This document shows positions 27,001-33,000 of a DNA stretch of 64,000 nt, piece by piece. The position numbers were made by a program. Within the stretch, counting starts at the first letter, position 1. Each line of letters starts with the position of its first letter. The stretch lies in sequence record PZ674596.1. The stretch is one strand, 5' to 3'. This DNA is from a phage.

Positions 27001-30000
27001 GTTGGAGTAGGTGCTTTCTCATCAATCGGTTGCAATGCTGAATGATAGGTAAGTACACACCTACAACAAAAGGGTGAAATGTGATATAAATCCGCCATCC
27101 CGATTTGACTTTTCATGGAGGAAAACATGTCGAACGAGATGGCGGGCGTTACAACAGAGCAAGTTGAGCGTATTGCCGCGATCGTTGCTCGGGAGGTTGT
27201 TGGCAAATTAGGTAAAGAGCTACGTGAAGAAATTGGCCAGGAGGTCAATGATCAGCTGAAAACCTACTTTGGTGATATGACCCCGGCGCAACATAGTATT
27301 CAACACTCCAATCTGGACAAACTCCTTAACCGGTTAGATTCCATCTCAAGTGGGTTCTTTGGCGGCATTGTTTCTAAAATAACGTCGTTCATTATTACCG
27401 CACTGCTTTTGGGGTTAGCCGCGTATGGCGTAAAAAGTGGACTGCAATAACAGGAGATCAAGGATGAAGACTCCGAGAGGCATTCGTAATAATAACCCCG
27501 GTAATCTTGATAAAGGATCACCGTGGCAAGGTCTGGTTGCGAATCCAGACGAACCGCGCTTTTGCACGTTTAAAGACCCTGTTTGGGGGATTCGTGCGCT
27601 GGCGGTGACTCTAATTACCTACCACGACAAACGTCGCGCAAAAGACGGCTCAAGTATCGATACCATTCGTGAAGTTATTGAACGTTGGGCACCGCCGAAT
27701 GAAAACAATACTGACGCCTACATTAATGAGGTGTCTAAAGCCGTTGGTGTAACCGCAGACATGATCATCGATCTGCATGATTACGACATCCTTCGACCTT
27801 TGGTTGAGGCAATCATTCGCCACGAGAATGGCCGAGGCCCGCTAAAAACGCTGAACACCTGGTATGCGGTAGAAGTTATTGAGGAAGGTCTGCGTCGAGC
27901 TGGCGTTGTTAAGCCGGTGAAAACCGTGAAGGCTGTTCCTGTAACTAAAGAAACCGCAGGCGCAACTGTTACAGCAGGTATTGGTCTGGCGCAGCTGGCC
28001 GATGTTATGCCGCAGGTTTCCGCTGCTATGGATAAAGCACAAGGTCATATCTCTAGCGGGGATACAGTACGCATCATCTTCGGTATTGCCACTATTGTTG
28101 TGGCAGGATTCATTGCCTGGTCGCAGGTAAGAAAACACCAGAAAGGGATGGTCTAATATGCTAGGCAGCCTGATGACAAAGCTAAAAGTTGCTTTGATTA
28201 CGCTGGCTGCCGTTCTTTTCGTTCTTGTCGGCGCTTACACGATGGGCGGGAATGCGGTGCGACGAGCAATGGAAGAGAAGGCAAAACAGGAAGACAGAAA
28301 ACGACTTCAAAGCACAGTGGAAGTGGTGAATGAGACGAGCAATAAAATACGTCAGAAAGATTCTTCTGCCGTTCATCGTGAGTTGTATGATAAGTGGGTG
28401 CGTCATTAAACCACAAACCGCCAGCGTATTGTTCTGCGATGGAGCTGGGCCTATCTATATCAGCAATAATGATGTGATGACCGAAGAAACCGAACGCCAA
28501 ATCCTTTTTCACAATACGATGGGAGAGAGAGTTTGCGGTTGGTGATGCGAAGTTCCCCTCACTTGAGGGGAGTACATTATTCTTCGAACAATTTTTCGAT
28601 AGATTTTGTAGGATAGAACAAAGAACGCTCGTTGTTACCAACCAGCTGGATAAAGTCTAAACTTTTATAAAACGCCTTGGCTTTGTCATTTAACGCCTCA
28701 ACGAAAAGTCCATGAATGCCTACAGCAAGAGATGCATTGTACACAACGCGCATTGCATGTGTTACAAGCATTGAGCCAAATCCTTGACCTTGAAGGGACT
28801 TGTCCAAAGCCAGCCTACCCAAAGTAACACTTGGAACATTCCGATAAGGTACCTTCTTTTGCTGGCTTCTTGAAGGTAAGGACTCCTTTTCAAAGCAGCT
28901 ACCTGACAAAGTGTAATACCCTAACACTTTTGGTCTGCCTTCTTTCGTGCAAAGCACATAAGCGCGAAGAATTTTTCCCTCATGCTGCCTTTTTAAGTGG
29001 TTGGTTAAAAAGGCATTTAGTGATTCTTCACCGCAATCAAAACCATTCAAATCATAATCTTTCTCTCCAGAGAAAATTTCTATCTTTATATTATCCACGA
29101 GTAAACTACTCCATGCTTTTCAGACGATCAGCAGCTCGTTTCAGCTTGTCGTTCGGTGCCGGAGGATTGCTTATAGCGTCCATAACCAGATTCCAGGATT
29201 CTTCATTCAGAACTAGTCTACGGTGTTGCTCTATAACTTTCACGGCACGTTCAGATGCACTGCTAACCATAAACTGAGTAATGCTCTGGTTAGACATTGC
29301 GGCAGCTTCCTCGATGATGCTTTTATCGTCATCGGTTAATCTCAAATCGATGCGCTGCTTTTTTAGTGCTGACATGTATTCCTCCTGATGGCCGTGATGT
29401 AGGAAGGCCATCAATCTCCTCTGTTCAAACTGAGTTTTCGACTCAAAAATTACTTTAAAAGGCTATAGCCCATTACGTGTGCATTATCAAATTGTGTACG
29501 GCATATCACCGTACTTGTAATATAGAGGTCATTGTTACTTTTTTCAACAGACAAATACAAGCTATGTTTGCCAATTGTTAATCACAACCTACCATTTAAC
29601 CTTTACACCGCAGCCGTAGGCATTTAGGCTATATCACATATAAGAAAACAAGTTGTTTCAGACGATAATTATATACGCAAAGGGAACTCTCCAATGACCA
29701 AGATCTTTGTGGTTGGCGGCACAAAGGGCGGGCCTGGCAAATCCACCGTTGCCCAGCAAATTGCCGTTTGCCTGAAAGTCAAAAAGAAGAAGAAGGTTTA
29801 TATTACCGATATAGATATTCAGCGCACGACAACGAGCTGGTGTGAAGACCGTCGACAGAACGAAGACCTTGAGCTGATTCCTTTTGCATACGTTCAGGAT
29901 GACATCATTAAGCACCTAAAATCGCTTCAGGGTAGAGCTGAGTTTGTAGTGGTAGATGCTGGTGGCTTCGACTCCGAAATTCAGCGACAAGCGATGCTGA

Positions 30001-33000
30001 TGGCTGACGTTATCATTATCCCGCTGCGTCCTAAGCGTCGTGATTTGAAATCTTTACGTGACATCGATCCTATTATCGACAATGTTCGCAATGTAAACGA
30101 TAAAGTGAAGGTCCGCGCGGTCATGAACCAGTGCCCGGCTTTGCCATCACAAGTGTCTCGCATTCTGGCGGCTAAAGAGATTGTTGAGACGTTTGGAATC
30201 GAGTCTGCGCCAGTCAATCTATATAACCGCAACGTCTATGATGATGCGGAAGAGTCTGGTCGTTCTATCTTTGAAATGACCGGTAGCGAGCGCGACAAAA
30301 AGGCGGAAGCCGAGTTTGAAGAATTTGTAGATTATCTGTTGAGTCTGGAGGAAGAAGAATAATGTCCATGAAAATGGGTGACCTAGCAAAGCGCAAAGAG
30401 CCTGATGCACCGGCTAAGAACACAACTCCTTTGCGCCAACCAGTCAGACCACAGGGACGCCCGACTCGTGGCAAAGAGAAAATTAAAAGCCGCACAATGT
30501 CACTGGAGGACGAATACTTCGAACTGCTGGAGATGATGAAGTTCATCCCTCGCTTCGAGAAGTTCACTCGTTCTGACGTGATTCGAGCAGCCATTTTCCA
30601 TCTGGCAGAGAAGTCACCGCAGGAAATCGAGGACATCGTGAAATTGAATGAGGCGATCACCGCTGCCGATGTCACGATGCGTACCGATGAAATTAAACGC
30701 GAGTTAATGAAGAAAGGTTGATATAAATCTCTAAGGCTGGTCTGCATTGGACAGCCTTAGAAATATTTCGTTCTATGAAAGCTATTCGTAGTTAAGCTCA
30801 CCGAACAGACTGAACATCAAGTCACCATCCAAAATTTCAAAGGGCAACTCGACATACTCATCCTTATGTCTCGGAATTGCGTTGCCGTCGTTAGGGGCAT
30901 TCTTGGTATAACCTTTTACATGTTTACCGTTTTCTTTTGTATACGGCAGCACGACAATTCGACCGTGATTTTTTGAAATGATAGTTCCTTCTTTCCAGAG
31001 CGTATTGCCTCTTGAGGTGGTTTCGCTTTCGCTAGCAACTTTAACACTCCAACCTACCTGATTTTTGTCCTCAAACCAGAAAACAAAGTTGCCAACAACC
31101 AGTACCTTTTGCCCATTCCTGAGAGCTTCATCCAGCATTCTTTTTACGCTGGCGAGTTGCAGTAACCGGTTAGCACGCGGCAGAAGCATTGAGCGAATAG
31201 TCGCTTTTGTTTTTCCCCAATGTGCAGCACCTGATAAACCAAAACCTCTGGCTATGCGTTCTTGGTAGCAGATCTTCGCTGTCTTAGCTTTGTTGTTATA
31301 TGAACATTCCCAAGTGTTAGGAGCAACGAGTTGAAGTGAAACTTGGAATTTGGGAAGAAAAACAAAATGTAAGTAAGGCATCTCGCTTAGCACGTCAAAA
31401 AGGGGTTGACGCAAAGTTTCGTAATCTGGGTTAATTATTAACTCATTTAATGTCACTCGCGGATCGTTGGCGTGTGCCTTAATTGCTTCGTTGAGCATTA
31501 TATGCTCTTCATCCATGAGACGTGATTTGGCTTTGAGTGCTTTGTCAACTTTCAAACGCAATGACTTCTTTTGAAACATAGATAGAGGAAGTTTTTCAAT
31601 GTCAAAGCTCACGTTTTTATTCAGCTCTAATGCCGCTTTTCTTGCTTCAGGATAGTTATCGTAGTCGTCATCAAAAGCGTGGTTTGGCATACCACGATCA
31701 ACATATCGCCGATACCAAGCAAGGGTTCCATCATTACGGAGTTTCAGACAGAACATCGACCATTTATTCCGTTCATATTTAGGCTGAGGCCAAAAAGCCA
31801 GTTCGGGAAGGCCATATCCTGGAAGTCTATTCATGCGCATGGTGACAATATCCACGAGGCTAAAACACTGATTCTAACATGATCTCCCTTGATAAATCTG
31901 TCAATGACATAGCATCTGGGGTTGGAGTCAAATTATGTTGTTCTTGGTATCCATTAGGAGCCTGTTTCTGTATATAAATAATAAGTAACTTATTAAATAT
32001 ATACGGAAGCAGGTCTTTTAAAAGACACCACCAGAACAACTCCCTTCCGTTTTCACTTCCAAAAACTGCCACCAGTAGCTATCATCCGCTCATTGTGATA
32101 AGTAAGTAACTACCTACCGGGTGAGCCACATGAGCCAAATCTTTTTCGATACCATCGACAACGACCAGTACGACTTCATGACAGAGTGGAATACCGCTGT
32201 TATGGACAAGTGGGTCGCTGAAAACATTGGTTTGTCGCGCTGTAAAGATGAGGCTGAACTCTTCGAGACGAAGTGGTTTGATTACCGCGACATGCATCCT
32301 CTTATGGCCACCTGTCTGTTTACGGAGGCATACAAACGTCAGTACTCAAATATCATGCTGACGCACGGTCGCGAACACTTTGAAACAGCTCCGTTCACCA
32401 CCGGGTTAAAACGCCTGCCTTATCAGGAGTTGTCGACTGCCAATAAAACGTCTCTATGGAAAGCACGCCAGTTTGCTGACCGCTATTGCTGCTCATACGA
32501 CTACTTTATCTCCACCGTTCTTTCCGCAGCTGCACGACGGCTGTGGGACAAGCTGCCGCGCCCACAGCATTTATGGCAGCCAGAACTGATTGAGATATTT
32601 GAAGAGAAATTAGCCAGACGCGCAACAACCCGTCTGGATGACTCTCTGGTTAGCTTTAAGCATATGGGAGACATGCAGTTCAACCCGATTCAGGAAAGCT
32701 ATTTTGAGTGGATTCTGGAGCGTTTGCGCACCATCCCTCGCAGCAAGCGCATACGCGCAATTTTCTCCGCTATCTGGCTAATGGAAATCGTTCCAGAGCG
32801 CCTTATTTCCGCCCACTTTCCAGAAGAACTGGAAGAAGCACGGCGGTTTATTGATCCCCTATCTAATTAACTAATACTAGAAAACAATTTGTTTAAAAAA
32901 CAAAGGAAAGCACATGACCGAACTTTGCCATACAGGACGCGGGCTGTCCGAAGAGTTTGATGAAGATTTCCAGAACAGACTGACGGCATATTTTTGTCGT

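Follow-up and report, generated by a model that had tools for sequence, protein, structure and literature searches.

An optional AtaRT/KacAT-type toxin-antitoxin cassette beside a conserved type Ib-like par operon in an SSU5/pHCM2-type phage-plasmid

Do toxin-antitoxin and partition genes that lie side by side on a phage genome form one maintenance block, and what is the small protein encoded together with ParA? We addressed these questions for positions 28577-30780 of a 64,000-nucleotide stretch of phage record PZ674596.1 (the whole stretch is called the window throughout), which is an SSU5/pHCM2-type phage-plasmid of E. coli. A first-pass annotation had described a single maintenance block in which a ribbon-helix-helix (RHH) antitoxin and a GNAT acetyltransferase toxin are divergent from parA and a gene for a 119-aa ParA partner, and all four open reading frames are present as it described them. 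That finding is essentially correct and mostly ordinary, namely an AtaRT/KacAT cargo beside a conserved type Ib-like par operon of a common phage-plasmid family. The notion of a single block did not hold, as the toxin-antitoxin (TA) pair is optional and has its own promoter and operator, the intergenic inverted repeat included. The region is likely to consist of three separable units: a TA cassette, a conserved core operon of parA and the 119-aa gene, and a hairpin arriving with a 357-aa cargo gene.

The separation of core and cargo was followed in 74 related viral contigs with a helicase at least 92% identical and with the whole region scorable. All 74 of these relatives encode ParA and the 119-aa protein; 36 carry the TA pair and 11 the 357-aa gene, in all four presence/absence combinations. 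The interval from the spanin gene to parA and that from the 119-aa gene to the next core gene each fell into many length classes. SSU5 is homologous only from 29587 onwards, ~107 bp before parA and at the right edge of the TA cassette. By these comparisons, the cassette is an optional cargo of ~1 kb (~28546-29586) with its own predicted promoter and operator in one of two variable slots. With a TA pair present in 36/74 relatives and with slots of variable content, what had been called a maintenance block amounts to a conserved par operon with a cargo slot on either side. The slots of Cyrano and SSU5 hold the PADLOC candidate defence system PDC-S31/DUF2971, those of relative L019 an ApeA-like HEPN protein and an Abi_2 protein, and those of other relatives several proteins without a recognisable family. 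The two slots (~28546-29586 and 30722-31855) resemble a defence/addiction hotspot of SSU5-type phage-plasmids.

The TA genes were assigned by comparison with Pfam, phrog and PDB entries. The toxin gene (28577-29098, minus strand, GTG start) encodes a GNAT acetyltransferase of 173 aa that matched AtaT (PDB 6gts/6ajm, E = 8e-79) without a gap over residues 1-172 and with ~69% identity as counted from the printed alignment, as well as KacT (PDB 5xun, E = 1.4e-73), Pfam Acetyltransf_1/7 and phrog_1758. The acetyl-CoA-loop motif QGQGxG (QGQGFG, G108) and the catalytic Tyr144 (FYKSL) are kept and aligned with the AtaT residues. Immediately upstream lies a DUF1778/TacA antitoxin gene (29106-29375, minus strand, 89 aa), with a gap of 7 nt between its stop codon and the GTG start of the toxin gene. 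Its product matched Pfam TacA1 (PF08681, E = 5.7e-26, above cutoff), KacA (PDB 5zgn, E = 6.6e-42, ~80% identical) and AtaR (PDB 6ajm_C, E = 1.3e-40). The N-terminal QRIDLRL strand is identical to that of KacA, including the conserved DNA-contact residues R8, D10 and R12, which in KacA touch operator bases (PMC6698736). The protein matches and gene order clearly identify 28577-29375 as an AtaRT/KacAT-type RHH/GNAT type II toxin-antitoxin of the TacAT superfamily, in line with the TacAT/AtaRT-type pair with the RHH antitoxin upstream proposed earlier.

The strands and ends of the neighbouring genes also bear out the arrangement of the TA pair, which is divergent from the small Walker-type parA and convergent with the lysis genes. 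The Rz and Rz1 genes end at 28409 and 28545, and a GC-rich, terminator-like hairpin (28552-28573), detected in a terminator scan and with an RNA fold of -16.1 kcal/mol (z = -2.3), separates the convergent Rz1 spanin gene from the stop codon of the GNAT gene. For the antitoxin gene, the ATG at 29375 is preceded by an AGGAGG Shine-Dalgarno sequence and its product aligns from residue 1 with KacA; a TTG start at 29414 was rejected, as both homology and the Shine-Dalgarno sequence favour the ATG. Because the antitoxin starts at 29375 and not at 29414, the divergent intergenic region measures 318 bp (29376-29693); its layout was thus described correctly, whereas the length given for it, ~280 bp, was too short.

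Within this region the predicted inverted repeat exists, 4 nt to the right of the 29492-29510 at which it had been placed. Its arms GTACGG (29496-29501) and CCGTAC (29509-29514) enclose the spacer CATATCA, and the palindrome has no other match at up to one mismatch in the 64-kb window (0.02 expected). The DNA crystallised with KacAT is AAATGTACGGTTATTAACCGTACATGA (PMC6698736), and the arms and spacing of the window repeat are the same as in this operator oligo. GTACGG-N7-CCGTAC is also found upstream of chromosomal ataRT (O157:H7), of one plasmid-borne homologue and of the diverged phage-plasmid copy ET220. Across 33 related viral contigs or loci the arms were invariant and the 7-nt spacer occurred in 7 different sequences, and invariant arms with a variable spacer are a signature of half-sites read by a protein. 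On this conservation, the palindrome at 29496-29514 is the AtaR/KacA-type operator and belongs to the TA pair, not to par.

The operator starts 4 nt past the -10 element of a predicted sigma-70 promoter of the TA operon (TTGAAA-17-TATATT, 29519-29547, minus strand), which reached 10/12 matches in a promoter scan, and this geometry agrees with the published KacA palindrome covering the transcription start (PMC6698736). If transcription begins just past the predicted -10, the TA leader would be ~137 nt long (29376-29512, minus strand). It contains a hairpin with a perfect 8-bp stem (TGATGGCC/GGCCATCA, 29386-29413, minus strand) that abuts the 5' side of the Shine-Dalgarno sequence, is kept with a 1-nt indel in the ET220 copy (89% identical) and forms in the minimum-free-energy fold; the fold of the whole leader is not above that of shuffles (z = -0.25). 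A long leader with a hairpin next to the Shine-Dalgarno sequence may add an extra layer of control. The leader also holds the palindrome GGCTATAGCC at 29461-29470.

The TA pair offers no new mechanism and is a textbook AtaRT/KacAT cassette with a known operator. By homology with AtaT and KacT, the toxin is predicted to acetylate charged tRNA and thereby halt translation, and the C-terminus of the antitoxin would wrap around the toxin and neutralise it. The N-terminal RHH dimers of the antitoxin would span the transcription start by sitting on both GTACGG arms. In KacAT, a KacT-KacA2-KacA2-KacT hexamer occupies a palindrome that covers the transcription start, and regulation is by conditional cooperativity (PMC6698736); a toxin2-antitoxin4 hexamer may likewise repress the TA operon of the window, dependent on the toxin:antitoxin ratio. 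The two TA genes are transcribed at 35x and 60x the local background in the Cyrano lysogen (PMC9928086). On a low-copy prophage-plasmid the pair would most likely act as an addiction module, which kills or arrests cells that lose the element, and/or in abortive defence.

The core operon begins with parA (29694-30362, plus strand), which encodes a small Walker-type ATPase of 222 aa. Its deviant Walker A motif KGGPGKS occupies residues 11-17, and the protein therefore has no N-terminal DNA-binding domain. The nearest solved relative is ParF of TP228 (PDB 4dzz/5u1g, E = 1.2e-10). The NCBIfam model ParA_partition matched with E = 1.9e-33, yet with 115.7 bits the match stays below the curated cutoff of 180 bits; further matches were to Pfam MipZ/AAA_31/CbiA and to phrog_164 ('ParA-like partition protein'). 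The gene of the 119-aa protein (30362-30721, plus strand) overlaps the parA stop codon (TAATG), and the spacing between the two genes is -8 to +4 nt in every lineage retrieved, to as little as 31% identity. ParA proteins of type Ib lack their own DNA-binding domain, and small ParF-like ATPases pair with the product of the immediately downstream gene. From this gene and protein architecture, the core operon is most likely a type Ib partition system. The label 'type Ib ParA/ParG-like' given to it earlier is appropriate for the architecture, with ParF as the nearest relative, no N-terminal domain and a small coupled gene; a match to a ParG model was not obtained.

Upstream of parA, a non-coding block (29587-29660, plus strand) is near-invariant in 6 relatives (SSU5, Cyrano, Klebsiella) in which the parA DNA is ~80-87% identical. 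It contains TTTACA-N17-TAGGCT (29602-29630, plus strand), which we infer to be the par promoter. The exact pattern is present in 72/80 close relatives, and alignment by eye showed the same geometry in more divergent ones: TTGTCA-17-TAGGCT in L009, TTTACA-17-TAGGCT in L012, TTGACC-17-TACCAT in L013 and TTTACA-17-TAGGCT in L019, in which the partner protein is 39% identical. The element falls below the threshold of the scan tool, with a -10 matching at only 3/6 positions. An alternative promoter, TAGGCA-17-TATAAG, was discarded for its lack of conservation in L009 and L013. The predicted -10 is overlapped by two TAGGC pentamers spaced 8 bp apart (29617-29629). L012 likewise has both pentamers, and L009 and L019 have one each; they could mark a further protein-binding site of the promoter or be no more than the -10.

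The identity of the ParA partner is the less ordinary part of the locus. The 119-aa protein, a putative centromere-binding adaptor, is assigned to phrog_5111 ('unknown function') and consists of an N-terminal MGDLAKR motif, a variable linker, a basic stretch, a probable RHH core (~residues 42-84) and two C-terminal helices. Among 1.84 billion proteins its family comprised 20 cluster representatives at E <= 1e-3, and the family alignments display a conserved N-terminal G-[DG]-L-x-K-[RK] followed by a variable, low-confidence linker, the conserved basic stretch RPQGRPTRGK and the core IKSRTMSLEDEY...TRSDVIRAAI. AlphaFold predicts helices at residues 48-59, 70-82, 86-97 and 101-118 and a disordered N-terminus. 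The NCBIfam model aCcr1 (an RHH family) matched residues 54-79 with E = 2.3e-4; family member P0027 gave a weak match to RHH_1 (5e-3), and the distant member P0039 matched RHH_8 (1.5e-5) and RHH_1 (4e-4), both marginally above cutoff. When the family profile was compared with the PDB, the top match was the RHH domain of NikR in the expected register, but with E = 0.63. As all these hints share one register, the core of the 119-aa protein can be read, with somewhat better than even confidence, as an RHH strand, a helix, a turn (T/S-R-S-D) and a second helix.

Searches with the 119-aa protein itself gave no match in Pfam, PADLOC or the PDB. PDB searches with the single sequence and two profiles returned nothing significant, structure searches were uninformative, and hhalign of the family against the TA antitoxin family gave a probability of 0.1%. 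Membership in the ParG family was rejected: ParG was not matched in the PDB by sequence or profile, and Pfam-A searched at E up to 10 with 15 family members gave no ParG match and nothing else of relevance. 'ParG-like' therefore describes the architecture alone. The sequence searches placed the TA pair as proposed and ParA nearest to ParF, and for the 119-aa protein yielded weak RHH matches in place of ParG.

A quite different function has been attached to this protein in Cyrano (OV696614), where the homologue CYRAN_29 is annotated as 'RelE/ParE putative toxin', counted as a toxin moron and transcribed at 9x local background in lysogens (PMC9928086). What speaks for a RelE/ParE-type toxin is this database label. 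Pfam, NCBIfam, PADLOC and the PDB contained no RelE/ParE match for the 119-aa protein, the adjacent genes are parA and cargo rather than an antitoxin gene, the predicted disordered tail and helices do not correspond to a RelE fold, and the weak matches of the protein are all to RHH families. We regard the toxin reading as effectively refuted and give it next to no weight.

If the 119-aa protein is the partition adaptor, it would have a DNA target on the phage-plasmid. In the parA leader, [C/T]ATAAG followed by AAACAA-N-TTGTTT is the sole element downstream of the promoter that is conserved in lineages in which the 119-aa homologue is 50-64% identical. In the window it is represented by the 13-bp palindrome AAACAA-G-TTGTTT (29646-29658), the best candidate for an operator or centromere site of the 119-aa protein. 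Apart from this one dyad and the two TAGGC pentamers, 29376-29700 and 30690-30800 contained no repeat family beyond chance-level pairs, and the density of AAAACA half-sites along the window showed no cluster at par. A parH-like reading of 29586-29640 as 4-bp boxes with an 8-bp period (NACC/AGGC boxes, by eye) was rejected, as the boxes are not conserved in deeper relatives. A literature search retrieved no paper describing the partition partner or the centromere of SSU5/pHCM2-type elements. Further downstream, a 265-bp non-coding region (31856-32120) lies upstream of a 249-aa core gene and has several blocks conserved across all lineages as well as an AT-rich palindrome with 26-nt arms (CCTGTTTCTGTATAT...ATATACGGAAGCAGG, 31961-32013). 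This region directly follows the par operon in Klebsiella relatives and could have a regulatory role, contain an origin or be a candidate for the centromere.

The leader dyad is part of a genome-wide set. AAAYAA-N-TTRTTT is present in 4 copies in the window (29646-29658, 32882-32894, 47411-47423 and 59821-59833), where 0.32 are expected at up to one mismatch and 0/100 shuffles reached 4. The 112.8-kb p15ODDR holds 11 copies (0.055 expected) and the first 100 kb of SSU5 hold 12 (0.02 expected), an over-representation of 200- to 600-fold relative to shuffles. A start codon follows 11-40 nt after nearly every copy, most copies are preceded by TAAGA or CTAGA, and the genes that follow include parA, the DnaB-like helicase gene, the cobT-like/dnaE operon and a terminase-associated gene. 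The copy in the helicase leader is conserved in all lineages and reads AAACAA-A-TTATTT in SSU5. The C/A mismatch that this would create in an RNA stem, together with the unstructured parA leader RNA (z = +0.6), points to AAAYAA half-sites in DNA rather than to a hairpin. No paper containing the palindrome was retrieved in a literature search.

These data bear on two explanations of the dyad that differ from a par-specific site. It may be unrelated to partition, as a phage-specific promoter or translation-initiation element or as the site of another regulator, with the par centromere elsewhere; we give this slightly less than an even chance. The constant position just 5' of the Shine-Dalgarno sequence of genes with many functions, the terminase-associated gene included, and the asymmetric left flank fit this explanation, and so does, weakly, plasmid pMT1, which keeps 3 copies and has no type Ib par genes. 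In the one pMT1 flank that was compared, that before the cobT-like gene, the sequence hardly differs from SSU5, and the comparison is therefore uninformative. The dyad also resembles the A/U-rich T7 gene 10 leader AGAAATAATTTTGTTTAA. However, no sigma-70 -35/-10 was found at a fixed spacing upstream of the dyads, neither a promoter nor an S1-binding enhancer would need a perfect dyad, and the searches yielded no candidate protein that would bind it.

Alternatively, the 119-aa protein could be mainly a global regulator, similar to omega of pSM19035 or KorB of RK2, with the 11-12 dispersed dyads serving both as operators and as a dispersed centromere, as in N15. In favour of this, the dyad is the only parA-leader element conserved across the lineages that share the predicted DNA-facing residues, the helicase-leader copy is kept in all lineages, the over-representation is strong, and both the SSU5 mismatch and the lack of leader RNA structure argue for a DNA site. 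In addition, a type Ib partner normally autoregulates, as its ParA lacks a DNA-binding domain, and a 13-bp palindrome has the size of two abutting omega-type heptads. Against it, the position shortly before start codons with a directional left flank resembles an expression signal more than a centromere, the parA leaders of the distant relatives L018 and L019 lack the motif, and the element encodes other regulators. We therefore treat a global regulator as unlikely.

Several observations weigh against the core operon being a type Ib partition system with the leader dyad as its DNA target. Repeated centromere sites beside the operon are a hallmark of type Ib systems, and repeat and k-mer searches of both operon flanks found no such array. 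The dyad is not specific for par and precedes ~10 other operons. The parA leaders of L018 and L019, the two most distant relatives, do not contain it, and yet the predicted DNA-facing strand residues are unchanged there; AAAACA is mildly enriched in the L018 leader (3 vs 0.53 expected) and not in that of L019. Finally, the phage-plasmid encodes two proteins with a ParB N-terminal domain adjoining the terminase genes.

The latter proteins could mean that one of them is the true ParA partner and that the 119-aa protein is an unrelated small regulator. The two adjacent genes are present beside terminase in p15ODDR (99011-100359, just outside the left end of the window), SSU5 (SSU5_125) and pMT1 (30707-32073), and one is labelled 'ParB-like partition protein' in SSU5. 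However, on the circular p15ODDR map they lie ~30-35 kb from parA next to packaging genes, and pMT1 retains them while using a separate type Ia parAB. Phage proteins with a ParB nuclease domain, and not a partition ParB, are typically encoded next to packaging genes. The 119-aa gene, in contrast, is immediately downstream of parA, translationally coupled to it and co-conserved with it in every relative. We consider this alternative very improbable; the two ParB-domain proteins are probably packaging-related and not the partner of the window ParA.

With the 119-aa protein as the most likely partner in a type Ib system, the core operon would work as follows. Transcription would proceed from TTTACA-N17-TAGGCT, and ATP-bound ParA dimers would cover the nucleoid. 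The small, dimeric and probably RHH-type 119-aa protein would bind the phage-plasmid DNA, and its flexible N-terminal G-D-L-A-K-R tail is predicted to stimulate the ParA ATPase, whereby plasmid copies would separate and the replicon would be stabilised. The 119-aa protein may also autoregulate the par operon.

The inverted repeat downstream of the 119-aa gene had been placed at 30733-30765 and suggested to be either the centromere or a terminator. It is present with corrected arms at 30727-30739 and 30752-30764 (13 nt, 92% complementary), and as RNA it folds with -20 and -18.5 kcal/mol on the two strands (z = -2.9 and -3.7), making the 13-bp-stem hairpin (30727-30764) terminator-like in both directions between the convergent 119-aa and 357-aa genes. 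Homology with SSU5 and Cyrano, which have the same par operon, stops at ~30725. BLAST with 30722-30781 matched 8/12 related loci with the 357-aa gene and no locus without it. The hairpin accompanies the 357-aa gene and is absent from relatives that carry the same par operon but lack this gene, and it is therefore not a centromere. It is best read as the terminator between the convergent genes, which would end both transcripts, belong to the 357-aa cargo gene and have arrived with it. This gene (30782-31855, minus strand) fills the second variable slot; its product belongs to phrog_22329 of unknown function and gave no match in Pfam, NCBIfam or PADLOC.

The wider setting shows in which elements this locus is found. 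Positions 28400-31000 are 100% identical to the E. coli plasmids CP025888 and p15ODDR (NZ_MG904996) and 97-99% identical over 89% of their length to the Escherichia phages CMS-2020a and Cyrano. From ~29587 to ~30725 they match Salmonella phage SSU5 (87%) and Klebsiella phage-plasmids (80-82%), and similar DNA was found in 737 plasmid records, chiefly of Klebsiella, Escherichia, Enterobacter and Salmonella. Genes for a tail fibre, holin, endolysin and Rz/Rz1 lie upstream of the TA/par region, and genes for the DnaB-like helicase and a primase lie downstream. The neighbouring genes and the identity to SSU5 and the Klebsiella phage-plasmids are the grounds on which the window was classified. An Rfam search of 28400-31000 returned one chance-level miRNA match and nothing else.

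Phage-plasmids of the SSU5/pHCM2 type occur commonly in E. coli, Klebsiella, Salmonella Typhi and Shigella; they carry resistance genes, and their partition system lets them persist as plasmids. The ParA partner has so far been annotated as 'hypothetical' or wrongly as a toxin, and our analysis corrects the annotation of the Cyrano homologue and defines a conserved core of promoter, coupled operon and leader dyad. The TA pair proved to be swappable, occupying one of two slots in which candidate defence genes are found in other relatives, and the genome-wide 13-bp dyad is a direct experimental handle on the regulation of maintenance genes. A bolder proposal, to which we attach a low probability, is that the 119-aa protein represents a hitherto uncharacterised family of RHH partition adaptors, restricted to SSU5-type phage-plasmids, which, like omega or KorB, bind the 11-12 dyads as a scattered centromere and as operators. 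If this were true, it would link partition during lysogeny to the expression of the replication operon and others on the phage-plasmid.

Among known systems, delta/omega of pSM19035 and IncC/KorB of RK2 are a possible parallel only, in that a short dyad recurs before par, replication and other operons (11-12 per genome). KorB has 12 sites in RK2, each a 13-bp palindrome, and heptads in either orientation are bound by omega; KorB, however, is a helix-turn-helix ParB and not an RHH protein, and the dyads of the window hug ribosome-binding sites. SopAB of N15, also a phage-plasmid, is an analogy for centromere sites that are scattered and located in regulatory regions, whereas SopA/SopB are type Ia. 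The core operon resembles ParF-ParG-parH of TP228, with which it shares a small Walker ATPase without an N-terminal domain, an immediately downstream partner gene whose product has a flexible N-terminal tail and, behind it, a probable RHH domain, and a promoter region directly upstream. It differs in that the window partner has 119 aa with two additional C-terminal helices, compared with the 76 aa of ParG, shows no sequence match to ParG, and is encoded in an operon without a detectable parH-like array of short boxes. The TA pair resembles AtaRT/KacAT, with an end-to-end, gap-free toxin alignment, an antitoxin ~80% identical to KacA, identical gene order and an identical GTACGG-N7-CCGTAC operator directly past the -10 element. 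Relative to chromosomal ataRT, the window pair is a distinct allele with only ~65% DNA identity that is carried on a phage-plasmid as slot cargo, and its operator lies ~120 nt from the start codon instead of ~25 nt, leaving room for a leader of ~137 nt, if transcription starts just past the -10, with a hairpin beside the Shine-Dalgarno sequence.

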